From Gemmatimonadota bacterium (GTDB lineage: Bacteria > Gemmatimonadota > Gemmatimonadetes > Longimicrobiales > Gaopeijiaceae): a stretch of 64,000 nt of DNA. The notes beneath the pieces are model-generated. The model saw only the letters and a program-made list of their open reading frames with translations, was not told where the DNA came from and ran no database searches. The position numbers and the translations under genes were made by a program. The stretch lies in contig JAXHMG010000003.1 of NCBI GenBank assembly GCA_034521595.1, positions 2,080,001-2,144,000 of the forward strand, in the 5' to 3' direction. This document shows, in pieces, positions 4,730 through 21,546 of the stretch. Every line of letters starts with the position of its first letter. Position 1 is the stretch's first letter.

Positions 4730-5998
4730 CTACGGGGCGCCGCCTCCGGGAAGCTTCTTCCGCACCTTCGCCCAGGTCGAGGCCAGGTGCACAAGCCTCG
4801 ACGCTTCCGTGCCCCCCACCCGCGCGTGCCGGAGGGCGTTCCGGAGCGCGTCGGGCCGGTTGGCATGGGCCGGAAGCTCCACGAAAGCGTTCCCGAGCTC
4901 CCGTAGGGTATGGGCATCGGATCCGGCCCCCCGAAGGGTACCGTGCCGGTCGGCCAAGTCTTCGGCCCTGGGATTGGCGGTGGGATGATGAAGCCGTGCA
5001 TTGAACACTTCCACGACTTCACAAAGCGACGCGAGCCGGTCGGCGAGCCGTCCTCCCCCACCCTTTCCACCCGCGTACGGATGGGGCAGATAGGAGATCC
5101 CCCCCTGTTCGTGAATCCAGGCGATCGTCTTCTCGGCGGGGGTGCCCCTCGGAATCTCCTCCGAGAGGTAGAGGCCGATGACGTCGATGCCTTCGGCCGT
5201 CCGAACCTCTTCCCCCGGAACGATGGCCTCCGGATGCCGCTCCGCCATGCGGAGCGCCAGTCCGAGCCGGTCGTGGTCCGTGATCGCGATGCGACCGTAC
5301 CCGAGCGCGCGCATCCGACGGAGCACGGCTTCCGGGTCGGAGAGACAGTCCCAGGACGCCATCGTGTGCAAATGCAGATCCATGCGGAGCTCGGACCGCG
5401 CACGTGCCCGCAAGTCGTCCAGCACCCGGTCCGCCCGCTCGCGGATGGCGTCGAGGCTCGCTCCGTTGTCGATCACGATGTCTGAGCGAGCCCGCTTCTC
5501 CTCCGCCGGCATTTGAGCGTCCATCATGCGGCGCGCCTCGGCCTCGTCGATGCCCCGGTCGGAGACCAGCCGAGCCAGCCGCACGGCTTCGGGGGCGTCG
5601 ACGAGCACCGTCACGTCGAAGTCCTCTTCACCTCCGGTCTCGAAAAGGAGCGGGATCTCGGACACCGCGAGCTCGTGGCCCCGTTCCTCCTGCTCCGCGA
5701 ACCACTGCTCCCGTTGCTCCCGCACGCTGGGGTGGATGATGGCCTCGAGCTTGGCGCGAGCTTCCTCGTCCCGGAAAACTCTGGCGCGCAGGGCCGCACG
5801 GTCGAGCGTGCCGTCGATCCCGACCACCTCGTCCCCGAAGGCCTCGCGGACCCGGTCGAAGCCGTGCGTGCCCGGTTCCACCGCTCGGCGGGCGAACGTG
5901 TCCGCGCTGGCGACCGGGACGTCCCGGGCCGCCCAGAGCTCGGCGACGGTCGACTTCCCCGCTGCGATGCTTCCGGTGAGCGCGACGTTGAGCGTCAT
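4730..5998 (-). CDS. coaE: Dephospho-CoA kinase fused to a C-terminal PHP-family phosphoesterase domain
   Basis: N-terminal LTGSIAAGKSTV P-loop with IIHP and EIPLLFE (CoaE). The frame continues without a stop into DLHLHT...TDHD...GEE...PHP...GSDAH (PHP domain, from about 5383). ATG at 5998 overlaps the DedA stop. Confidence 0.88.
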   Translation of the reverse strand: MTLNVALTGSIAAGKSTVAELWAARDVPVASADTFARRAVEPGTHGFDRVREAFGDEVVGIDGTLDRAALRARVFRDEEARAKLEAIIHPSVREQREQWFAEQEERGHELAVSEIPLLFETGGEEDFDVTVLVDAPEAVRLARLVSDRGIDEAEARRMMDAQMPAEEKRARSDIVIDNGASLDAIRERADRVLDDLRARARSELRMDLHLHTMASWDCLSDPEAVLRRMRALGYGRIAITDHDRLGLALRMAERHPEAIVPGEEVRTAEGIDVIGLYLSEEIPRGTPAEKTIAWIHEQGGISYLPHPYAGGKGGGGRLADRLASLCEVVEVFNARLHHPTANPRAEDLADRHGTLRGAGSDAHTLRELGNAFVELPAHANRPDALRNALRHARVGGTEASRLVHLASTWAKVRKKLPGGGAP

Positions 5999-6621
5999 GT
6001 CGTGGGCCTCTCGGACGCGACACCGACCCGCTTCCGACGCCACAGGAACCAGAGCACGGCGCCCGCGGCCACGAACAGCGTCGCGCCTCCCACGCCGACC
6101 CAGCGAGCCACGGCCTGCCAGCTTTCCCCTGCCAGCGCACCGATTCCCACGTAGATCGCCAGCCAACCCACGAGGCCGAAAGTCTGGTAGAAGAGGAACC
6201 GTCCGTAGGAGAGGCCACTCATCCCGGCCGCCATGGGCATGAGGGTGCGGGCGAAGGAGATCAGGCGTCCGACCGTGACCGAGTAGACCGGGTGCCGACC
6301 GAAGAACCCGCTCAGCCGTGCGTGCCGCTCGCTCGCCACTCTGGAGAGTCGCCCTTTTCCTTGGAGGAAACGCACGCCCCACACCCGACCAACCCAGTAG
6401 CCGGCCGTATCTCCGAGCGCGCCCCCGGCCGCCGCCGCGGTCAGCATCGGCGCGAGGGCCACGTCACCTTCCAGCGCCAGCGCCGTCGCGAAAGATGTCG
6501 CCATGCCGGAGGGCACCACCAGGCCCGTGATGAAGCACGTCTCGAGCACCGCGAGCACGAACAGGAGCCACGGGCCGTAGAGCGGAAGGAGCTGAAGCAG
6601 GTACGCGCCGATCGGGTCCAT
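5995..6621 (-). CDS. DedA-family membrane protein
   Basis: ETCFITGLVVP, GDTAGYWVGR and GRLISFARTLMPMAAG motifs; probable ATG at 6621. Confidence 0.9.
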   Translation of the reverse strand: MDPIGAYLLQLLPLYGPWLLFVLAVLETCFITGLVVPSGMATSFATALALEGDVALAPMLTAAAAGGALGDTAGYWVGRVWGVRFLQGKGRLSRVASERHARLSGFFGRHPVYSVTVGRLISFARTLMPMAAGMSGLSYGRFLFYQTFGLVGWLAIYVGIGALAGESWQAVARWVGVGGATLFVAAGAVLWFLWRRKRVGVASERPTT

Positions 6622-10576: not shown

Positions 10577-11089
10577 TCACAGTCGGAATCCGACGCTGAT
10601 CGGGAAGTAACGAGTCTTGCTGCCCTCGGTGTTCACCTGGACGACCCGGAACTCCGCGAACCCGCCGAAGCCGAGGGCTCCGATGTTCACGCCGAACCCG
10701 CCCTGGAAGCCGGGCTCGGTCACCGGGTCGATCGCTTCCTGGTCCGAATCCACGCGGTAGGTGCCGACGCCGACCAGAAAGTACGGAGTGATGCCGACGC
10801 CCTGGAGCGTGAGGACGGCGCTCAGCGCCCCGTTGAGCACGGTGTGCTTCGGCTGCCCTTCGAGCTGACCGAACGAGTGATACTCTCCCTCGAGCCGCCC
10901 CGAGAGGGGGAAAGCCGGTACCCCGAGCTGCAAGCCGACCCTGCCGTGGTAGCCCCCTTCGGCAACATCGCTGAAATCGCCCATCGGCGTGCTCAGGCCA
11001 CCTCCGGCCATGATCCGCGGAATCTGCGCCTCGGCAGCGGAAGGGAGCAGGAATGCCGCGAGCGCGGCCGTAAACACGAAACGTCGCAT
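10577..11089 (-). CDS. Outer-membrane beta-barrel protein (small, OmpA/OmpW-like)
   Basis: Signal peptide ending AEA|Q, alternating Gly/aromatic beta-strands, terminal ISVGFRL; ATG at 11089. Confidence 0.8.
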   Translation of the reverse strand: MRRFVFTAALAAFLLPSAAEAQIPRIMAGGGLSTPMGDFSDVAEGGYHGRVGLQLGVPAFPLSGRLEGEYHSFGQLEGQPKHTVLNGALSAVLTLQGVGITPYFLVGVGTYRVDSDQEAIDPVTEPGFQGGFGVNIGALGFGGFAEFRVVQVNTEGSKTRYFPISVGFRL

Positions 11090-11190
11090 GATCTGGGTCC
11101 TCGGGATTGGATTGAAGGGGGGGCTTGCCAAAGCTGTCACCGACTGCGCGAAACCTGCAAGGATCTCGTCGGGCGGGGCCGCCTCGAAGC

Positions 11191-14100
11191 TCAGAAGCGC
11201 CAACCGGCGGAGAGGATGAGCGCAGTGTACCGATAGTCGCTGTCGCCGGTCGAGAAGCTCTGAAGGCCGGTGGAAGAGTAACCTCCCGAAAGGGCTACAT
11301 TTCGTCCGGGCGCGATATCGTAGGACACGCGCGTGGAAGCGCGCACCGTTCCGGCCGGATCACCCGAGTGGGTCACCTGCTGCATCCCCGGAGCGACTTC
11401 CAGCAACAGACCCCAGTCGCCGGCCCGTCCCAGCCACCGGCCGGTCAGCTCTCCGATGCCGTAGAAGTCCGGGTCGAAGTAGCCGTCCTGGAGGTCCTTG
11501 TCGTACGTGAAAGCCCGGGAAGCCACGCCGACGGCGAATCCCCCACCGAGCGTGCGCGACACGGACAGCGCGCCGTTCACCCGCCGATTCCGCTCCGATC
11601 CGTCGAACACGGCGTATCCGGCGCTACCGTTCAACCGCCACGTGGAACTCGGTCGCCAGCGGCCGGTGAGGGCTCCCTCGGACATCCGCACGCCCGCCGA
11701 AGCGAGCGCCGCGGTAGCGTCCAAAGCGGCGGTACGGATTCGGAACGTCAGCCCCAGCGGATAGCGACCCGGCGTGGACACCGACAACCTGCCCGACATC
11801 CGGCTGTCCGCGCCAGGCGCGTCGGTTCGCGAGCCCCCCGCCCCCGCCGAGAGCGTCCATCCCGGCTCGAGCGTGTACGAAGCCGACACGGTGAGGCCCA
11901 TGGACGACCGCTCGAGCTCGTTCTGACGCAACCCTTTCTCGTAGAGGTCGGCCCGAAGCCGCCATCGAGGGGACGCGTGCCACGTGGTCGCGACCGCGGC
12001 CGTGCGCATGCGATTCCCGTCCGAGTCGGACTCGAAGGAGAGATTCGGTGACGCGTCGGGCTCGAACGCGGCACGGAGCGAGCGGAGCTGCTCCCGCGCT
12101 TCGCCGTGCGTGGGGTCCACTTCCACGGCCCGCTCGAGCGCTTGGAGCGCGGCCGCGTTCCGGCCCTGCCACCGCAGGTTCTGCCCGAGCGCGACCCATG
12201 CTCCAGCGCCGTCGGCCTCCTCGACCGCCCGACGGAGCGTCTCCTCGCCTTCGACGAGCGCGCCTGCCCACCCGAGCGTGCGCCCCCGCCCGACGAGGGC
12301 CCCTCCATGGTCGGGCTCCCGCTCCAGCACGCGATCGTACTCGTCCACCGCTTCCTCCAGCCGGTCCGAGAACGCGAGCGCGCGAGCGCGACCCAGCCGC
12401 GCGTCCAGATCGGCGGGATCGGCGGCGAGCAGGGAGTCGTAAACCGCCACGGACGCGGTGAACTTCGAGGCCCAACCGAGCACCGTCGCCTGCTGTCGCC
12501 GGGCCTCCGTGTTGTCCGGGCTGATCGCCAGAAGCCGGTCGTAGGTCTCCAGAGACGCCTCGTACCGACCAGCCCATGCCTCGAACAGCGCTCGTGCCTC
12601 CAGTGCCCCTGGATGTCCCGGCTCCTCCTCCAACACGATGTCCAGCGCCGCCAGTGCGTCGTCCGTCTCCCCCGACCAGGCGAGGACGCGCGCTCGATCC
12701 ACTCGAGCGGCGAGGTTCTCCGGCGCGATCTCCAGCAGGCGGTCGAAACGGGTCAGCGCCTCCTCGTAGCGCTCCTCCCACGCGTGCATGAGCGCCGTGC
12801 GGTGCAGCGCGACCCCGTGCTCCGGATTCTCCTCGAGGAGGGCTTCGTACAGACGCATCGCCGTCTCCGTGTCGCCGGCGACCCATGCCTCGGCGGCCGC
12901 CTCGTCGAGGGTGTCGGGGGCGGCGGCCGCCGGCGGCGGCACGGCGGGGCCGGGCGTGTACGGCCGGAGCTCGGCGAAGACCTCCTTCATGGTTTCGTAC
13001 GCGGGGCGGGACCGTTCCACCCATTCCGGGCTCTCCCACGTGGGCCAGGAGAAGCGCGCCGTTTCACCCTCCCGGTCGGGGACCCGCAGGGTACGGCCGT
13101 TCCCGCGGACGGCCGCGACGATGCCGATGTCGTCGACCTGTTCGGTCCCGAGTGCCCCGAACACCGAATCCGGCCAGGCCGTCACGCCGTCCCGCAAGCT
13201 CCACCGTCCGTCGGGCCCGAGATACGCATCCCGGGCATTGGCGTCCCCCGGTCCCTGCAGCACGGTTCGGCTCGAAGGGTCGGTCACGTTGAGGAGCAGC
13301 CACGGAATCCGTACCTCGAGGGTGCTGCCGTCGGCGCTCCGCTCCCAGAAGCCGTCCGGCGCGGCTCCGGACGGGAGGATCCCGCGGTCGTACCCCGCCG
13401 CCAGGTACTCCGTGGAGTCGCGGGTGAAGCGTCTCCGGTTGACCACGACCCGCAACGAGTCGTAGCGCCCGTCGTCGTTGGGCTCGGTGTAGTACGGGAG
13501 GTTGAACCGCTGATCGACGCGGGCGTGGAACAGGCCCTCCGGTGGATTCTCGAAGGACACCCGCCGGCCGGTGAGCCCGGTGGCGCCCTGGCCGACCTCG
13601 GCCAGCCGGAACGGATTCGACGGCGGATCGGCCATCACCCGCACTTCGTCGCCCGTCGCCCTCAATACGAACTCCAGCCCGACCGGGAGGCGCTCGCCCA
13701 CCCGGCCCGGCCACCGGAAGTCGCCGGCTTCGGCATCGAAGACATCGAACCCGACCAGGGTCGTGTCCGAGGGGGCTCGGTCCGGGGTCTCCACCAAGAG
13801 CCAGAGGTATGCCGCGTCGTGGCTCGCGCGAACCGTGAGCTCCGGCGTGCGGTACAGAGGGTCGACGTCCTCCCAGGCTTCGCGTCGGTCGGGAAGACGC
13901 TGCCCCTCGAACGGTGGCGCCGCGTCAATGGCCCACAGGCCGTAGTGCTGCTCCGCGTCGAGCCGGTTGTACCACAGCCGGTTGCGGTCCTGCGGAAGCT
14001 CGAACTCGAGCGCGACCCAGTTCTGCTTGAACCATTCGTCGATCCACGCGAACAACACCCCCCCGGCCATCCCGGTCTCGGCGAGCTCGAGGGTGAGGCG

Positions 14101-15678
14101 GCGATCCACCTCGGCCATCTCCGCCTCGGTGAGCCCTCCGTGGTGCCATCCCTGCGGTTGGAGGTGTGCATTCCCGAGCGAAGCGGGCACCCCGTACTCG
14201 GAGATCACCAACGGCATACCACGGTGGTGCTCCTTGAGATCTCGAAGATACCCCGCGTATCGAGACGGCCCCATGGTGGAACGCGACTCGGCGTAACGTT
14301 CCGACAGGATCATGAAGTCCGGGTAGTAGGGGTACGCGTGGAACGACGCGAAATAGCCCGCCCGGAACCGGTTCGTGGGCCGGATCCGCGTCGCGTCCAA
14401 CGAGATGGCGTCGTTCTCGTATTCGCGGGGCCGCATGCCCGGATCCTCCCCGAAGGCCCGCCGGATCGCCATCTCTTCCTCCACGGTCGTCTCCGAGGGA
14501 TGGCTCAGGGGATCGAGGGTCGGCCAGTTCGTGTAGGCCACCGGACGCTGCGCCCGGTAGGTATCGGTTTCGTACGCGACGATCTCCTCGACCGCCTTGC
14601 CCATCCACGCGTCCATGGCGTTTCCACCCTCCACCCGGACGTAGCGGCCTTCGAACCCGGATCGCCCTCCCTGGATCGAGTCGTAGGCAAGCGCGCTGAA
14701 CGGCTCCCATTCCCGGCCGAGGATGTAGGCGAGCGTCCACGGGGCGACGTCCGCCGTGTAGTGGCCCCAGGCGTGGCCCGGCCGATACTCGATGCTCGCA
14801 CGACCGTGGAGCACGTCCACGACGCGGCGCATCTCCTCGAAGAACTCGCTCTCGAACGGTTCTCCGGAAAAATCGTGGTCGGGCGGCAACCCCGTCCATG
14901 CGCCGTGGATCAGCCAGAGTGCCCGCTCAGGGTTCGTCTCGTTCCAGTCGGAGAGGGCCTGGTAGAACGCCGGGGGGTGGATGGTATAGAGCCGCACCAC
15001 GTTGGCGTTCATCTCCGCCATCCCCTCGATCCAGCGCGCGTACGTGATCGAGTCGGGAAATTGGCTCGGGTAGCGACCCGGCAGAGCCGCGCCGAGGTTC
15101 ACTCCCTTGATGTAGAAGGGGCGCCAGCCCTCGGGCGTGAGCACCTCGAAGCGTTCGCCCGCCGTGCGGGCCCGCAGCTCCAAGCTATCGGGGAGGGACA
15201 ACGGCGGACGGTCCGGCGCGGGTCCGAGCGTCGGGCCACGGATCCGTTCGAGATACTCGAGCGCCGTCGGGTGCCCCTCGTCGACCGCCACCACCCGTTC
15301 GAACAGGTCCTCCGCGCGCTCCACCTCGCCCGTGCGCCACGCGGCCAAGCCCAGGCCGGTGAGCGCGTCCACGTTCTCCGGCTCCGCCTCGACCACCTCG
15401 GTCCACAGCTCGGCAGCCTCCTCGACGGCGCCTCCACGCAACAAGACGTAGCCGAGGCCGGTTCGCGCGTATAGATCGTCGCCGCACAGGCCGAGCGCTT
15501 CTTCGAACCGTGCGCGTGCGGCCTCCATGTCACCCGCACGGTAGGCCTCCCACCCCGCTTCGGCTTCCTGCGCCGACCCGGCGGGACACGCATCCTGCCC
15601 CGCGCTCGGCTCGGGCCATGCGAGGCACGAGGCGACGAGCAGCGAGAGCGCGCACCGTGAGCCACCCCACCTGTTCAT
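11191..15678 (-). CDS. Large secreted protein: TPR - putative glycoside hydrolase TIM barrel - TPR array - C-terminal outer-membrane beta-barrel
   Basis: Signal peptide and N-terminal TPRs. Middle domain IKGVNLG...NVVRLYT...GREWEP...HAYPYYP...SEYG...WIDEWFK. About 8 further TPRs, then a beta-strand C-terminus ending SAGWRF. AGGAGG RBS before ATG 15678. Confidence 0.8.
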   Translation of the reverse strand: MNRWGGSRCALSLLVASCLAWPEPSAGQDACPAGSAQEAEAGWEAYRAGDMEAARARFEEALGLCGDDLYARTGLGYVLLRGGAVEEAAELWTEVVEAEPENVDALTGLGLAAWRTGEVERAEDLFERVVAVDEGHPTALEYLERIRGPTLGPAPDRPPLSLPDSLELRARTAGERFEVLTPEGWRPFYIKGVNLGAALPGRYPSQFPDSITYARWIEGMAEMNANVVRLYTIHPPAFYQALSDWNETNPERALWLIHGAWTGLPPDHDFSGEPFESEFFEEMRRVVDVLHGRASIEYRPGHAWGHYTADVAPWTLAYILGREWEPFSALAYDSIQGGRSGFEGRYVRVEGGNAMDAWMGKAVEEIVAYETDTYRAQRPVAYTNWPTLDPLSHPSETTVEEEMAIRRAFGEDPGMRPREYENDAISLDATRIRPTNRFRAGYFASFHAYPYYPDFMILSERYAESRSTMGPSRYAGYLRDLKEHHRGMPLVISEYGVPASLGNAHLQPQGWHHGGLTEAEMAEVDRRLTLELAETGMAGGVLFAWIDEWFKQNWVALEFELPQDRNRLWYNRLDAEQHYGLWAIDAAPPFEGQRLPDRREAWEDVDPLYRTPELTVRASHDAAYLWLLVETPDRAPSDTTLVGFDVFDAEAGDFRWPGRVGERLPVGLEFVLRATGDEVRVMADPPSNPFRLAEVGQGATGLTGRRVSFENPPEGLFHARVDQRFNLPYYTEPNDDGRYDSLRVVVNRRRFTRDSTEYLAAGYDRGILPSGAAPDGFWERSADGSTLEVRIPWLLLNVTDPSSRTVLQGPGDANARDAYLGPDGRWSLRDGVTAWPDSVFGALGTEQVDDIGIVAAVRGNGRTLRVPDREGETARFSWPTWESPEWVERSRPAYETMKEVFAELRPYTPGPAVPPPAAAAPDTLDEAAAEAWVAGDTETAMRLYEALLEENPEHGVALHRTALMHAWEERYEEALTRFDRLLEIAPENLAARVDRARVLAWSGETDDALAALDIVLEEEPGHPGALEARALFEAWAGRYEASLETYDRLLAISPDNTEARRQQATVLGWASKFTASVAVYDSLLAADPADLDARLGRARALAFSDRLEEAVDEYDRVLEREPDHGGALVGRGRTLGWAGALVEGEETLRRAVEEADGAGAWVALGQNLRWQGRNAAALQALERAVEVDPTHGEAREQLRSLRAAFEPDASPNLSFESDSDGNRMRTAAVATTWHASPRWRLRADLYEKGLRQNELERSSMGLTVSASYTLEPGWTLSAGAGGSRTDAPGADSRMSGRLSVSTPGRYPLGLTFRIRTAALDATAALASAGVRMSEGALTGRWRPSSTWRLNGSAGYAVFDGSERNRRVNGALSVSRTLGGGFAVGVASRAFTYDKDLQDGYFDPDFYGIGELTGRWLGRAGDWGLLLEVAPGMQQVTHSGDPAGTVRASTRVSYDIAPGRNVALSGGYSSTGLQSFSTGDSDYRYTALILSAGWRF

Positions 15679-15761
15679 CGTGCTCTTTCCTCCTGGTGCT
15701 TTATCGGAAGCAAACGTGATTCCGGCGACGACGACGTGAGGCCCCCTCACCGAAGGCTCCG

Positions 15762-16943
15762 TCAAGCGACGGCCAGATCCGGCTCGACCCGCTCGGCCCA
15801 GGCCAGGAGCCCGCCCTCCAGGTTGACGACCGGGGCGAAGCCCCGCTCCACGAGCATCCCGGCCGCGCGGGCGCTCCTCTGACCGGACTTGCAGTACACG
15901 ATGATCGGGCGGTCGTCGGGAAGCTCGGCCACCCGCTCCTCGAGCTCACCCAGCGGCACCAGGCGGGCGCCCCGCTCGCCCAGGTTGCTCACCGCCCATT
16001 CCCAGGGCTCACGCACGTCGAGCAGAAACGGGGCCGGCTCGGAGGTGGAGGCTAGACGCTCGGCGAGCTCGGCGACAGTGATGCTTCCCGTCTCGGCCCC
16101 GACGCCGGCGGTCGCGCCAGGCTCTTCGCCCCCCGGAGCCGTTCCGCAAAACACCTCGTAGTCGATGAGCTCCGTCTGCGTCGGCTCGTCACCACAGACG
16201 GGGCAATCCGGGTTCCGCCGCAGCTCGACCTCCCGCCAACTCATGTCCAACGCGTCGAAGATCAGGAGGCGTCCGACGAGGGGACGCCCCACTCCGAGCA
16301 GGAGCTTCACGGTCTCCATCGCCTGGACGCTGCCGATGATCCCGGGCAAGACGCCCAGCACCCCACCTTCCGCGCAGTTCGGCACCAGGCCCGGAGGTGG
16401 TGGCTCACGGAACAGGCACCGGTAGCACGGCCCGTCCCCTGCCGCGAACACGGACGCCTGGCCCTCCCACCGGAAGATGGAGCCGTACACGTTCGGCTTG
16501 CCCAGGAGCACGCACGCGTCGTTCACCAGGTAGCGCGTGGGAAAGTTGTCCGTCCCGTCGACGATCACGTCGTAGGCGTCGAGGATGTCGAGCGCGTTCT
16601 CCGAGGTCAGCCGGGTCTCGTGCCGCTCCACGTCGACGTGCGGATTCACGTCGTGCAAGCGGTCCACGGCGCTGTCGAGCTTGGAGCGCCCCACGTCGGA
16701 GGTGCCGTGGAGGAGCTGCCGTTGGAGGTTGCTCTCGTCCACGGTATCGAAGTCCACCAGGCCGAGCGTCCCGACTCCGGCCGCCGCGAGATAGAGCGCC
16801 AGGGGCGAGCCCAGCCCCCCCGCGCCCACGCAGAGGACGCGGCCCTGCTTGAGCCGTGTCTGCCCCTCCACGCCCACCTCGGGCAGAGTGAGATGGCGCG
16901 CGTAGCGATACAGCTCACCGCGGCTGAAATCCGAAAGCGACAT
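15762..16943 (-). CDS. moeB: Molybdopterin-synthase adenylyltransferase MoeB/MoeZ with C-terminal rhodanese domain
   Basis: RYARHL, GAGGLG, SNLQRQ, DGTDNF, CYRC/CPVC and rhodanese YCKSGQRS motifs. Confidence 0.93.
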   Translation of the reverse strand: MSLSDFSRGELYRYARHLTLPEVGVEGQTRLKQGRVLCVGAGGLGSPLALYLAAAGVGTLGLVDFDTVDESNLQRQLLHGTSDVGRSKLDSAVDRLHDVNPHVDVERHETRLTSENALDILDAYDVIVDGTDNFPTRYLVNDACVLLGKPNVYGSIFRWEGQASVFAAGDGPCYRCLFREPPPPGLVPNCAEGGVLGVLPGIIGSVQAMETVKLLLGVGRPLVGRLLIFDALDMSWREVELRRNPDCPVCGDEPTQTELIDYEVFCGTAPGGEEPGATAGVGAETGSITVAELAERLASTSEPAPFLLDVREPWEWAVSNLGERGARLVPLGELEERVAELPDDRPIIVYCKSGQRSARAAGMLVERGFAPVVNLEGGLLAWAERVEPDLAVA

Positions 16944-16946
16944 GCG

Positions 16947-19196
16947 TTACGGACCCCCCGTCACGGGAGGGGTTCCGAGGCGTCCTCCCTCCGCGACGAG
17001 CCGGAAGGCCGCGGCGTCTTCCTCGAGCTCGGCCACCAGCGCCTCGTCCCGACCTGCCGACTCCGCCACGTCGGCCAGTTGCACGGCCAACGCGTAGTAC
17101 TGCCAGGGGATATTGAGCGTGGACCGATCCTGCCAGATGGCGCGATCGCGGATCCCGCGGAACCGGTAGACATCGCGGTAAAGGGTGAGCGAGCGGTCCA
17201 GATCGAACCACTCCCCACCGTACGACTCTCGTCCCCGCACGAGGCCCTCGGGCGGCTCCTCCTCGAGCTGCCGGAACACCAGCTTCGACACCAGCCCCTG
17301 CCGCACGGCCCAGCGCTCGAGCCCCAGTTGGCGCATCATCCCCCCCGCGGCCGAAAAGTAGATGGGCCGTTCTCCGATCGCGTCGTGGATGATCGATAGC
17401 GCGATCTGGTGGCTCCGGTCGAGCGTCGTGCCCGCGGGGTACGTCACCGCCATTCCGGGAAACGGGACCGTCATGTCGTTGGTCAGACTCGCCCGTCCCA
17501 CACCGTCCAGCTCCTCGGGCGGGAGATCGAGAATCGAGCGCTCCGGGGGCGGGCGGTCCTCGTAGAGCCCCGGCGCCACCTGCGGATCGAACGCCCGTTG
17601 CCGCGCAGGGGCCGTCAGCTCCTGGAGCTGCTCGGGATACCAATCCGTGTAGAGATACTGCCCGACGACGACCGTCACGTCCGGCCGGATGGCCTCCACC
17701 TCCTGCAAATACCACAACGGAAACGTGTCGTTGTCCCCGTTCGTGAAGAGCACGGCGTACGGTTCCACGCTGACCAGCAGGTCGTACGCCCAGTCGCGTG
17801 CGGCGTAGTCACCGCTACGGCTGGCCCAGCTCCAGTTCAGCACGAGCGGGAGGACGGCGAACGCCAGGACCGGCGCAGCCACGCCGAACCGAGGACGGGG
17901 CCCGCCCACCACGCCGGCTACCACCCGCCAGACGCGGGCAAGGCCGATCCCCGCCAGGACGCCCCAAAGCATGAAGCCCCCGATGAAGAAGTAGTCACGC
18001 TCCCGCACCTCGTGTTGGGCCCGATCGGTGATGTCCGGGGCGAGGGAATAGCCGTACCGGAAGTTCAGGTAGTAGACCAACCCCAGTGTGAGCGTGGCCG
18101 CCAGCACGGCGAGGTATCCGAACAGGACCCGGTCCGCGGACCAGGCCGTCCACAGGCCCACCCCTCCCAACGCCAGGAAGAGCACGGCGAGCGGCAGACG
18201 CGGGCCCCAGGGCAGCGGGGAGGGCTCGAGGCCTCGAGCCCATTGCCACTCGAAGTACTGCCACCACATCTCGAGCTGCGCCCCGAGAGGCGCTTTACGC
18301 TCGGTGACGGGGGGCGGTTGGTACTGCCGGCGTGTCAGGTTGTCGGCGAGCATCTCGCATCCGACCCACCCGTGCGTGTAGATCGCCGCCGCCGCGCCCC
18401 CGACGCTCTCGCAGGTGGGATCGCCCTCGTTGATGACCGGATCGAGCTCGGCCCGCACGGGGAGCACGAAGTTGAACGAGAGGCCGAGCACTACGAGAAG
18501 CACGGCCCGTTGGATGAACGCTCGCCGCAGGAGGGGACGCACACCCGACACGACCACGAGAAGGAGGAGGGCCGGCGCCGGCAGAACGGACATGAGATGG
18601 TTCGTCGAGCCCAGTGCCAGCAGGAACACGATCCACAGGAGGTACCGCTCACTCCCCGGCCGACCTCGCTCGTCCCGCCAGCGGATCGCCAACCACGTGA
18701 CCAACGCGATGACGAGCACGCTCAGGGTGTAGACCTTCTCGTTGACGTTGGACTGGTTCCAGACGGTGAACGCCGTCGCCCCGAGCAGCGCGGCAGCACC
18801 GGCCCCGACCAGGGCCACGAGCTCACGCTCGGCATACCCCTTGATGACGCGGTGGGCCACGAGGTACAAGAAACCCGTGGCCGCGCCGCTGGTCGCCGCG
18901 GCGAGGAGGTTGATGCGCACGGCCACGGGAAGGCCCAGAGGTGCCAGCAACACGCTCCACACCCGCCCGACCACCACGAAGAGGGGATTCCCGGGAGGGT
19001 GGGGGATTCCGAGGATGTGAGCCGTCGCGATGTACTCGCTGGCGTCCCAGAACGCGGTGGTCGGCGCGAGGGTGACGACGTACAGCAGGAACGCGGCCGC
19101 CGCCGCGGCGACGGCCGCGATATAGGGCGGGCGGTATCGTTCGGGCACCGGCTGCTCGTCTCTCGCTTCGGGAGCGGGCTCGCGCGTAAAGATCAC
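16947..19196 (-). CDS. DUF2723 (TMEM260-like) GT-C-fold membrane glycosyltransferase
   Basis: FWDASEYI...GIPHPPGNP, RERDYFF and FTNGDNDTFPLWYLQEVE motifs with many TM helices. GTG at 19196 follows GAGGGAG. Confidence 0.88.
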   Translation of the reverse strand: MIFTREPAPEARDEQPVPERYRPPYIAAVAAAAAAFLLYVVTLAPTTAFWDASEYIATAHILGIPHPPGNPLFVVVGRVWSVLLAPLGLPVAVRINLLAAATSGAATGFLYLVAHRVIKGYAERELVALVGAGAAALLGATAFTVWNQSNVNEKVYTLSVLVIALVTWLAIRWRDERGRPGSERYLLWIVFLLALGSTNHLMSVLPAPALLLLVVVSGVRPLLRRAFIQRAVLLVVLGLSFNFVLPVRAELDPVINEGDPTCESVGGAAAAIYTHGWVGCEMLADNLTRRQYQPPPVTERKAPLGAQLEMWWQYFEWQWARGLEPSPLPWGPRLPLAVLFLALGGVGLWTAWSADRVLFGYLAVLAATLTLGLVYYLNFRYGYSLAPDITDRAQHEVRERDYFFIGGFMLWGVLAGIGLARVWRVVAGVVGGPRPRFGVAAPVLAFAVLPLVLNWSWASRSGDYAARDWAYDLLVSVEPYAVLFTNGDNDTFPLWYLQEVEAIRPDVTVVVGQYLYTDWYPEQLQELTAPARQRAFDPQVAPGLYEDRPPPERSILDLPPEELDGVGRASLTNDMTVPFPGMAVTYPAGTTLDRSHQIALSIIHDAIGERPIYFSAAGGMMRQLGLERWAVRQGLVSKLVFRQLEEEPPEGLVRGRESYGGEWFDLDRSLTLYRDVYRFRGIRDRAIWQDRSTLNIPWQYYALAVQLADVAESAGRDEALVAELEEDAAAFRLVAEGGRLGTPPVTGGP

Positions 19197-19224
19197 TCCC
19201 TCACGGCGCCCAAGACGCACGCCA

Positions 19225-20085
19225 TCACGACATGCCGAGGAGCCGCCGAACCTCGGCTTTCACCGCCGGATCGCGGTCATCCACGGCCTGATTCAGGAGA
19301 CGTCGGGCCCGGGGCGTGCCGATGTGGCGGAGCGCGCGGTAGGCGGCGATGCGCACATCGGGCGGAGGACGCCGCAGGAACGACCCGACCGCTTGTCGCT
19401 CGATGGCCTGGACCGCCCCGGGGTCGGCCAACCGGCCCAGAGCGTGGAGCACGGCAAGGGTCACGTCCGGATCATCTTCGTTGGCGAGCATTCGCTGGAG
19501 CAGCCGCACGGCACGCTCGACCCCCAGCTCACCCGCGGCGGTCGCGGCGGCCGCGCGAACCATGGCCGTCGGATCGTCCAGCATGCCGTAGGCGAGCTGA
19601 CCGGCGTCGCTTCCCCCCTGCTTGGCCAGTGCCAGCAGCGCGTCACGCCGGACCTTGGGCTCGGGACGAGCGAGCGCGCCGGTCAACAGCTCCACGGCCC
19701 GTTCCCCACCCACTTCCCCCAGAATGGAGACGCCGTTGCGCACGACGAACCACCGCGGGTCGTCCATCATCTCTTCGACGACGGGTAGGCCGTCGGCCCC
19801 CATGCGGATCAGGGCGTCCGAATAGGCCCTCCGCGCGAACCGGTCTTCCGTGGTGGCCAAAGCATCCGCGAGCGCGCGGGCCGCTCGCAGTCCGAGGCGG
19901 GCGCAAGCGTCGAAGAGCTCCTCGCGCCGCTCCTCCTCGCGCTCGACCGCGAGCTCCGCGACCAACCGGGTAGCCGGGTCGGCGGGCTGGGAAGCCGGTG
20001 ACGCCTTCTCGTCCGAGCCGGTGAAGAACGCGTCGATCGACCGTGCCAGACCGCCGCCCCGCGGTCGCTCAGATGCCTCGGACAT
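19225..20085 (-). CDS. HEAT-repeat protein
   Basis: Repeated D..W.V.RN / VRRDALLAL / VRAAAA.A.G.LG HEAT-like units. Confidence 0.85.
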   Translation of the reverse strand: MSEASERPRGGGLARSIDAFFTGSDEKASPASQPADPATRLVAELAVEREEERREELFDACARLGLRAARALADALATTEDRFARRAYSDALIRMGADGLPVVEEMMDDPRWFVVRNGVSILGEVGGERAVELLTGALARPEPKVRRDALLALAKQGGSDAGQLAYGMLDDPTAMVRAAAATAAGELGVERAVRLLQRMLANEDDPDVTLAVLHALGRLADPGAVQAIERQAVGSFLRRPPPDVRIAAYRALRHIGTPRARRLLNQAVDDRDPAVKAEVRRLLGMS

Positions 20086-20142
20086 GCGCCTCTCTTTGGT
20101 GGTCGGGGGTCGGGTGACCCAATGGCCGCGCCCTCCGGGGCG

Positions 20143-21546
20143 TCAACCTACGGCCTCACGGGCCCGGATGCCTCCCTCGATGTTACGCACGTCCTCGAAT
20201 CCCGCGGCCTGGAGGAGGCTGGCGCCGATCGCGGAGCGATTGCCCGACCGGCAATACACGAGGGTGGGACGACTCGGATCCAGCTCTTCGGCCCCCTCCC
20301 GTAGGCGGCCGAGATGTATGTGGACCGCCTCCGGCACGTGTCCTTCCTCCCACTCCGTCGCGCCGCGCACGTCGAGGAGGAGCGCTCCCTCCTCTTCCAT
20401 GGCGCTCTCCGCCCCGTCCCAATCCAGCACCTGCGTGCGCTGGAGCGGCTCCACTTCCGCGCTCCACCAATCCAACACGGATTCGTCGGCGAACCCGGCC
20501 GCTCGGTCGATCCCGATCATGGCGAGGTCGCGCGCGGCGCCGTCCGCCTGCCCCTGATCGTAAGCAACGAAGAACACGGGCGCGTCGTAGGGCAGGAGCC
20601 AACCGGACCAGGTCGTGAAGTCGGCCCCCCAGGGTAGGTTGAGCGTTCCCGGCAGGTGCCCTTCGGCGAACTCCGCCCGCGAACGAAGGTCCACCACCGT
20701 CGCCCCACCCCGGAGCCGCTCCCCGAGCGCCCGCGGCTCCATGTGGGGCGGCTTCGGCAGCTCGTCCAGCACGCTCGGCCCGTCCCTGTTCATGCGCTTC
20801 ATGTGCGCGAAATACACGGGCGGTTCCGGTTGGTCCTCCAGTACCTTGCTGACGAACTCGTCCTCGGTCGCGCACTGAAACGCCCAGTTCACCATCTTCT
20901 CGTACCCCAGCGTCGACGAAGGCACCGCGCCGAGCGCCTTTCCGCATGCCGACCCCGCCCCGTGCCCGGGAAGGATCTGGAGGTAGTCGGGCAACGAGCG
21001 GAACTGCTCGAGTGATTGCCAGAGGACGCGGGCGCCATCCTCCATGGTGTCCCTGACGCCGGCGGCCTTCTCGAGCAGATCCGGACGTCCGACGTCGCCG
21101 ACGAAGAGAAAATCTCCCGTCAACACGCCCATGGGCCGGTCGCTCGCAGCGCCGTCGGTCACCGCGAAGGACAGGTGCTCCGGGGTGTGGCCGGGCGTGT
21201 GGAGGGCCTCGATGCTCACCTTTCCGATCCGGATCTCGTCCCCGTCCCGGAGCAGCCTGGCGCCATCGGAGTCGGCGAAACCGTATTGCCAGTCGTTTCC
21301 GCCCTCGGCCGAAAGTAGGAGGGTCGCGCCCGTGCGCGCCACGAGTTGCCTCGACCCGGAAAGGAAATCGGCGTGGATGTGGGTCTCGGTCACGTACCGA
21401 ATCTCCATGCCCTCCTGCTCCGCCGCGCGGAGATACACATCGCTGTCACGGTGAGGGTCCACGACCACGGCCTCACCCGTGGCCTGACATCCGATCATGT
21501 AGCTGGCCTGAGCCAGCTTGTCGTCGAAAAAGCGGCGCAGCAGCAT
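20143..21546 (-). CDS. MBL-fold persulfide dioxygenase with pseudo-rhodanese and rhodanese domains (CstB-like)
   Basis: ETHIHADF, HTPGHTPEH, GDFLFVGDVGRPDL and PGHGAGSACG motifs. The first rhodanese-like domain lacks Cys; the second has YCRSGNRS. Confidence 0.9.
   Translation of the reverse strand: MLLRRFFDDKLAQASYMIGCQATGEAVVVDPHRDSDVYLRAAEQEGMEIRYVTETHIHADFLSGSRQLVARTGATLLLSAEGGNDWQYGFADSDGARLLRDGDEIRIGKVSIEALHTPGHTPEHLSFAVTDGAASDRPMGVLTGDFLFVGDVGRPDLLEKAAGVRDTMEDGARVLWQSLEQFRSLPDYLQILPGHGAGSACGKALGAVPSSTLGYEKMVNWAFQCATEDEFVSKVLEDQPEPPVYFAHMKRMNRDGPSVLDELPKPPHMEPRALGERLRGGATVVDLRSRAEFAEGHLPGTLNLPWGADFTTWSGWLLPYDAPVFFVAYDQGQADGAARDLAMIGIDRAAGFADESVLDWWSAEVEPLQRTQVLDWDGAESAMEEEGALLLDVRGATEWEEGHVPEAVHIHLGRLREGAEELDPSRPTLVYCRSGNRSAIGASLLQAAGFEDVRNIEGGIRAREAVG

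Follow-up and report, generated by a model that had tools for sequence, protein, structure and literature searches.

The cellulose, poly-N-acetylglucosamine (PNAG), Pel and alginate systems serve as models of how biofilm matrices are built, and the way in which their hydrolases are coupled to the pore is still debated. BcsZ, of the cellulose system, is an (alpha/alpha)6 enzyme of glycoside hydrolase (GH) family GH8. Here, we analyze a gene in a stretch of 64,000 nucleotides from a Gemmatimonadota genome (contig C3:2080001-2144000; hereafter, the window is this whole stretch), which lies at 11191..15678 of the window on the minus strand and codes for 1495 residues, in which a putative periplasmic glycosidase shares a single chain with a predicted tetratricopeptide repeat (TPR)/beta-barrel pore. 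We estimate a probability of about three in four that the gene supplies that half of a synthase-dependent exopolysaccharide system which lies in the periplasm and outer membrane, with a tethered glycosidase, and that it arose by the fusion of two genes.

A fusion of BcsZ to BcsC (BcsZC) occurs in the cellulose system of Zymomonas (PMC7112194). The original prediction, made from the sequence of the window, had described exporter hydrolases as separate proteins, which is too strong in view of BcsZC, and the principle of joining a hydrolase to a porin is not new, having been published for that protein (PMC7112194). Compared by description, the likeness lies in a periplasmic glycoside hydrolase and a TPR/beta-barrel pore in one chain within a synthase-dependent system. 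The two differ in the enzyme, which is of GH8 in BcsZ and a predicted triosephosphate isomerase (TIM) barrel of clan GH-A here, and in the synthase, which is BcsA with BcsB in the cellulose system and would here be a family 2 glycosyltransferase (GT2) with a HEAT-repeat partner and a receiver (REC) regulator. From PgaA and PgaB of Escherichia coli (poly-beta-1,6-GlcNAc) the locus is set apart by NCBIfam scores far under the cut-offs, both for PgaA (TIGR03939, 44.4 bits against 366.65 on the 1495-residue protein) and for PgaC (144 against 422 bits on the candidate synthase), and by an enzyme that is not GH153/GHL13 and lacks a deacetylase. Sequence identity to the PelB/PelA and BcsC systems is just 13-16%, and the predicted enzyme fold is unlike the GH166 domain of PelA. 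What the locus adds is a natural single-chain form, its evolutionary origin and its separation from the synthase operon, together with a confident, model-based assignment of the enzyme fold to clan GH-A, with GH157 as the nearest solved structure. In the literature searched, we found no paper on a HEAT-partnered GT2/receiver exopolysaccharide system, or on synthase-dependent exopolysaccharide in Gemmatimonadota, and PMC12419801 does not cover a HEAT-partnered synthase system.

Reading frame and predicted folds

The minus-strand open reading frame (ORF) extends without interruption over 11191-15765 and, from the ATG at 15678, codes for 1495 residues followed by the stop codon (ORF list and translation); all features of the protein given below lie on the same strand. 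The G+C content of the window is 66-72%, so long spurious frames are common in it. We take the 1495-residue frame to be real and not spurious, because its middle part is matched by 1291 database proteins (the best 120 of them at 55-100% identity) and relatives are encoded in 534 stretches of species-representative genomes. Eighty of these stretches were fetched, nearly all labelled Gemmatimonadota, and the counts of related loci given hereafter refer to these 80. Judged by eye, the N-terminus, MNRWGGSRCALSLLVASCLAWPEPSAG/QD, resembles a Sec signal peptide (residues 1-27; 15598..15678), with a charged n-region, a hydrophobic core and an SAG/QD site. The N-terminal VASC resembles a lipobox, but a lipoprotein was rejected, the Cys not being kept in the three homologues examined (P0064, P0068 and P0080). 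A Pfam scan of the whole protein placed TPRs at residues ~45-140 and ~930-1200 and no family at residues 190-900, and NCBIfam gave TPR-type partial matches only. The N-terminal TPR array (residues ~40-154; 15217..15561) has about three repeats (TPR_16, TPR_11 and TPR_CcmH_CycH at 47-140).

The middle part (residues 155-905) and the C-terminal part (906-1495) were folded separately, and the structures described below are these two predicted AlphaFold2 (AF2) models. The model of the middle part (predicted local distance difference test, pLDDT, 93.9; predicted template modelling score, pTM, 0.93) consists of an eight-strand beta/alpha barrel (residues ~166-579; 13942..15183) followed by an all-beta region. 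In an alignment of the middle part with 65 relatives from the fetched loci (A1, 66 sequences), E323, E325 and E494 (E169, E171 and E340 of the model) are invariant in 66/66 sequences, with identity down to 46%, and many residues around both candidate catalytic glutamates are likewise invariant. E325, in GREWEP (residues 321-326), comes directly past barrel strand 4 (model 161-166) and is the candidate acid/base (14704..14706); E494, in ISEYG (492-496), falls at the end of strand 7 (model 336-341) and is the candidate nucleophile (14197..14199). The (beta/alpha)8 fold and these Glu positions, read from the strand list of the model, are features of clan GH-A (the 4/7 superfamily). All matches listed by Foldseek for this model are glycoside hydrolases, GH157 first (E 2.5e-13), then GH158, GH2, GH5 and PslG, a hydrolase of exopolysaccharide, and the top matches in the VIA structure comparison are likewise all glycoside hydrolases; most of these families belong to clan GH-A. 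We infer that the middle domain is a retaining glycosidase of the clan GH-A type, the model and Foldseek agreeing with the earlier suggestion of a TIM barrel with two glutamates in the GH-A places.

By sequence, the domain appears to stand apart from the GH families of Pfam and NCBIfam and from the sequences of the PDB. Its best Pfam match, Glyco_hydro_72, was at chance level (E 0.32); phmmer with the single middle sequence against PDB sequences gave chance matches only, with no glycosidase, and the 66-sequence profile against PDB sequences found no glycosidase, LaGH157 included, its best match being an unrelated enzyme (E 0.032). The language-model Atlas placed unnamed clusters first, then clusters of the GH2_C/GH72/GH5 type at 0.91. 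The nearest solved structure is that of the endo-beta-1,3-glucanase LaGH157 (PDB 9g4n, 9fz9 and 9g5g; 16% identity), and a literature search on GH157 (Labilibaculum) found no paper. The domain is not placed in GH157 at the sequence level, and the substrate of LaGH157 is not transferable to it. The all-beta region (residues 580-905; 12964..13941; model strands 426-736) probably comprises sandwich domains, and R596, W624, E634, R636, W639, D646-P647-S648, W724 and W727 are invariant in the 66-sequence alignment. No named family was found for it; a likeness to Glucodextran_C in the Atlas (0.91, with 156 features in common) was too weak and was not used.

The model of the C-terminal part (pLDDT 92.7, with the first 14 residues, a linker, below 50) shows 17 helices followed by 16 strands; a second alignment, A2, joins this part to 56 relatives. 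The helices (model 19-299), in a region also matched by Pfam TPR families, make up a TPR superhelix of about 8.5 repeats (residues ~924-1204; 12067..12909), and the strands a predicted outer-membrane beta-barrel (residues ~1208-1495; 11194..12057) that ends in Phe (...SAGWRF). The model is closest to BcsC, PgaA and PelB, which fill the top four VIA entries, and plain TPR proteins reach at most 22.3 in the same comparison. The parts listed in the original prediction (signal peptide, TPRs, TIM-barrel-like domain, beta-rich domain, about eight TPRs and a barrel with a terminal Phe) were thus all recovered by translation, Pfam and the AF2 models; its transmembrane barrel corresponds to the 16 modelled strands, and the combination of TPRs and barrel is, as it had held, the exporter architecture of the PgaA, BcsC and PelB class. 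By this predicted architecture and by its presumed action we regard the protein as a member of the synthase-dependent exporter class, but it is filed in neither the BcsC nor the PgaA family because its scores fall short of their curated sequence thresholds.

Directly downstream of the exporter gene, an ORF of 208 residues (10577-11203, minus strand) has a weak match to OMP_b-brl (E 6.7e-4). It is kept at the same place in relatives of the fused form (42-76% identity; e.g., L008-L012 and L014-L021), and its product may be one more outer-membrane part of the system.

Evolution of the fused gene

All parts lie in one frame in 21 of the 80 related loci, and in 45 a TPR-glycosidase gene is followed by a separate TPR-porin gene, with 30-740 nt between the stop codon of the former and the beginning of the TPR match. 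Elsewhere the porin gene is on the other strand (1/80), the porin part is far off (2/80), there are in-frame stops within the enzyme part (2/80), or porin parts were not found (9/80, mostly where the contig ends just past the enzyme part). In split forms, the second gene has its own signal peptide and comes straight after, or overlaps, the stop of the first gene. At the same junction, the protein of the window has a Pro/Ala-rich linker (residues ~908-925; 12904..12957), which stands where the split forms have a stop codon and a second signal peptide, and which leads to the conserved A-x-A-W-x-x-G-D start of the TPRs. On a FastTree tree of the enzyme domain (66 rows, 57 of them labelled) the fused/split label takes two changes, compared with a mean of 17.2 on shuffling (0/500 shuffles as low), and with the root placed at the midpoint the fused forms fall inside the split ones. 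Because the fused forms nest among split ones and the linker replaces the second signal peptide, the sequences indicate that the single chain is a derived fusion of adjacent TPR-glycosidase and TPR-porin genes, confined to one clade, and neither an assembly artefact nor ancestral. The claim that the hydrolase is fused to the exporter therefore stands for this gene but not for the family at large, most relatives having two adjacent genes.

The two loci with in-frame stops, L013 and L016, are lake-metagenome relatives. Their TAG or TAA codons, at L013:6090-6092 and L016:7145-7147, with a second stop near the domain end, replace conserved Asp, Tyr and Trp codons. Recoding is unlikely because the stops differ in position and in codon, and they are probably due to pseudogenes or assembly errors.

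Genetic linkage to a processive synthase

In relatives, the gene is genetically linked to a processive GT2. Of the 80 loci, 31 have a GT2 match (200 bits or more) in the fetched flanks, upstream on the same strand in 22 and on the other strand in nine, and often accompanied by a HEAT protein and a receiver regulator; in one operon (L045), genes for an Hpt-GGDEF-REC-REC protein, a HEAT protein, the GT2 and the fused exporter are consecutive, the stop codon of each overlapping the start codon of the next. In the homologue P0064, a GT2 synthase forms part of the same chain. In the genome studied here the synthase is on another contig: none of the 11 genome matches to PF13641 lies inside C3:2080001-2144000, in line with the earlier observation that the window holds no GT2 synthase, and in a genome search with P0064 the GT2 part was matched only outside the window, best at contig C2:91321-92676 (49% identity). 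The C2 gene lies between a HEAT-repeat gene and a gene of the metallo-beta-lactamase fold, with a PIN-REC-REC gene upstream, and no porin or glycosidase was found beside it. Its product (P0292) is matched by Pfam GT2 families and carries the sequences DAD, GEDMEL and QRDRWQRG, which we take to represent the D, DxD, (T/G)ED and Q(R/Q)xRW motifs of processive GT2 synthases; its best NCBIfam match is PgaC_IcaA, at the sub-threshold score given above, and its best PDB sequence match is BcsA (E 1.3e-6).

The regulator gene upstream of the HEAT-GT2 pair varies, from Hpt-GGDEF-REC-REC (L045:5209-6915, plus strand) to PIN-REC-REC (L007:6144-8183, plus strand, in the genome of the window), the REC domains being the only part common to both.

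Across 201 evenly sampled genomes of the phylum, two of them unpublished (G057 and G182), the enzyme domain is present in 49 genomes and the synthase in 72; the synthase is found in 48/49 genomes with the enzyme domain as against 24/152 without it. The anticipated co-occurrence of homologues with a polysaccharide synthase was thus found both in loci (31/80) and in genomes (48/49), and a HEAT gene, which had been proposed as a further marker, adjoins the synthase. Neither gene is present in 23/23 other sampled genomes of the family to which the window belongs, and the system is patchy in that sense.

The same genome has a canonical pgaA-pgaB-pgaC-like locus on the minus strand of contig C2:25300-31300 (L110:3300-9264), coding for a GT2 of 541 residues, an 808-residue frame that joins a carbohydrate esterase family 4 (CE4) deacetylase to GHL13, and a TPR and PgaA_barrel protein of 904 residues. 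This true PgaA scores 153.9 bits on PgaA_barrel. The organism therefore possesses two systems of the synthase-dependent kind. Because the A2 profile and BCSC_C match no barrel but that of the protein of the window, we had considered that the genome might have no other exporter of this class; this was rejected, given the true PgaA_barrel protein on C2.

Upstream of the exporter gene, at 15762-21546 on the minus strand, the window carries genes for a ThiF-rhodanese protein (393 residues), a TMEM260-like GT-C glycosyltransferase (757 residues), a HEAT_2 protein (286 residues) and a metallo-beta-lactamase-rhodanese protein (467 residues). The block is kept in the closest relatives, with no evident functional tie to the exporter; in the 13-member subclade of the window, the setting is metallo-beta-lactamase-rhodanese, HEAT, TMEM260-like GT-C, ThiF-rhodanese, exporter and small outer-membrane protein, with no synthase nearby. 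The HEAT protein of the window was considered, and rejected, as a paralogue of the HEAT partner of the synthase, the two having a likeness at the level of repeats only (29% over 113 residues). Further away, at 4730-6382 (minus strand), a 550-residue frame joins dephospho-CoA kinase (CoaE) with PHP and PHP_C.

Wider family, alternatives and meaning

An exhaustive search with the middle domain returned 1414 cluster representatives at E <=0.001, 570 of them at E <=1e-30. Pfam domains were surveyed in 45 of the 150 representatives listed: ten have a C-terminal CE4 polysaccharide deacetylase, one an N-terminal GT2, two HEAT repeats, one Ig/cadherin domains with a type IX secretion tail and four TPRs only, and 27 have no family whatever. 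The source labels assign one CE4 form to Bacteroidales and another representative to Gorillibacterium. In metagenome loci fetched with a CE4 form, a homologue of the same GT2 (30-41% identity) lies just upstream in 19/22; in each of the other three loci, the upstream flank is short or missing. The enzyme domain thus appears, from gene order, to be a recurrent partner of this GT2 synthase across phyla, and the joining of CE4 to the middle domain in one branch of the family is like the combination of deacetylase and enzyme in PgaB and PelA.

In the system that we propose, Sec would export the protein, whose last ~290 residues would enter the outer membrane as a porin of 16 strands. The ~1200 residues ahead of the porin would stay in the periplasm and would consist of a short TPR array, the glycosidase with its beta-sandwich domains and, beneath the pore, a TPR superhelix of 8.5 repeats. 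The processive GT2 encoded on C2 (~91.3-92.7 kb), with its HEAT partner and receiver regulator, would polymerize the chain and push it across the inner membrane; the superhelix below the pore would take up the chain, and the 16-strand barrel would pass the polymer out. The tethered retaining glycosidase may trim the polymer at the pore or clear it from there, a role like that of PgaB, PelA and BcsZ in their own systems, and the fusion would set the ratio of enzyme to pore at 1:1.

Several observations weigh against this proposal. At the level of sequence, BCSC_C in the last 300 residues is sub-threshold (15.7-19.2 bits against a cut-off of 23.5), and in a Pfam scan of the barrel alone PgaA_barrel was not listed at E <=10. 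The synthase is unlinked to the exporter gene in this genome and in its 13-member subclade, so the pairing with the C2 synthase is a putative one, and only 18 of the 49 genomes with the enzyme domain have synthase and enzyme no more than 10 kb apart on a single contig. The sampled genomes are moreover related, not independent, and the co-occurrence counts therefore make the association look stronger than it is. Lastly, the pga-like locus brings its own porin, which gives the genome a second exporter of this class.

The middle domain could instead be a transglycosylase or remodelling enzyme, like the GH17 and GH72 glucanosyltransferases, whose role in the periplasm would be to branch, lengthen or attach the polymer. 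Retaining clan GH-A enzymes do include transglycosylases, the only Pfam hint for the domain is Glyco_hydro_72 and its Atlas neighbours carry GH72 beside GH2_C; the Pfam hint, however, does not rise above chance, hydrolases (GH157, GH2 and GH5) provide the best structural matches, and the known exporter-linked enzymes PgaB, PelA, BcsZ and PslG are hydrolases too. We consider such an activity unlikely. Loss of catalysis, which would leave a plain TPR-porin with a lectin-like, polymer-binding insert, has a precedent of a kind in the C-terminal domain of PgaB, first taken for a binding domain (PMC5933820). The invariance of both candidate catalytic glutamates and of many residues around them, in 66 sequences with identity down to 46%, makes a dead domain very improbable.

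A different question is which glycan the exporter serves. In this clade it might be one made by its neighbours, the TMEM260-like GT-C (16947-19220) and the HEAT protein (19225-20085), and not by the distant GT2, and the gene order from the metallo-beta-lactamase-rhodanese gene to the small outer-membrane protein is indeed kept in the closest relatives (e.g., L009, L010 and L014). GT-C enzymes of this Pfam family, however, are protein or lipid glycosyltransferases and not polymer synthases, a ThiF-rhodanese gene of unrelated function intervenes, and the HEAT protein of the window resembles the partner of the synthase only at the level of repeats, as described above; the genome, for its part, retains a REC-HEAT-GT2 operon that has no porin of its own. 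Service to a neighbour-made glycan is accordingly improbable, less so than a dead enzyme but more so than a transglycosylase.

For a tethered glycosidase working with the C2 synthase, our best guess is that the polymer is a beta-linked hexosamine or glucan. The likeness of the synthase to the PgaC type and, elsewhere in the family, the fusions to CE4 point to an N-acetylhexosamine polymer, and the GH157 and GH158 structural neighbours of the middle domain are beta-1,3-glucanases. Because the genome has a separate, canonical pga-like locus, the HEAT-partnered system may be suggested to make a polymer other than PNAG. More tentatively, and at somewhat less than an even chance, the middle domain founds a new family of clan GH-A (at least 1414 cluster representatives) and is the dedicated periplasmic enzyme of a widespread receiver-controlled, HEAT-partnered system, acting at the TPR scaffold of the pore in a 1:1 ratio, an independent counterpart of PgaB and PelA, as the CE4 fusions of Bacteroidales would suggest.

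With enzyme and pore in one chain, the protein is a defined object for structural work on how hydrolases are coupled to pores. Its enzyme domain represents a large family that has neither a profile nor a solved relative by sequence and that is tied to a receiver-HEAT-GT2 operon. Identification of the polymer would add a further pathway for a matrix polysaccharide, one common among the Gemmatimonadota of soils and waters and found in other phyla as well.

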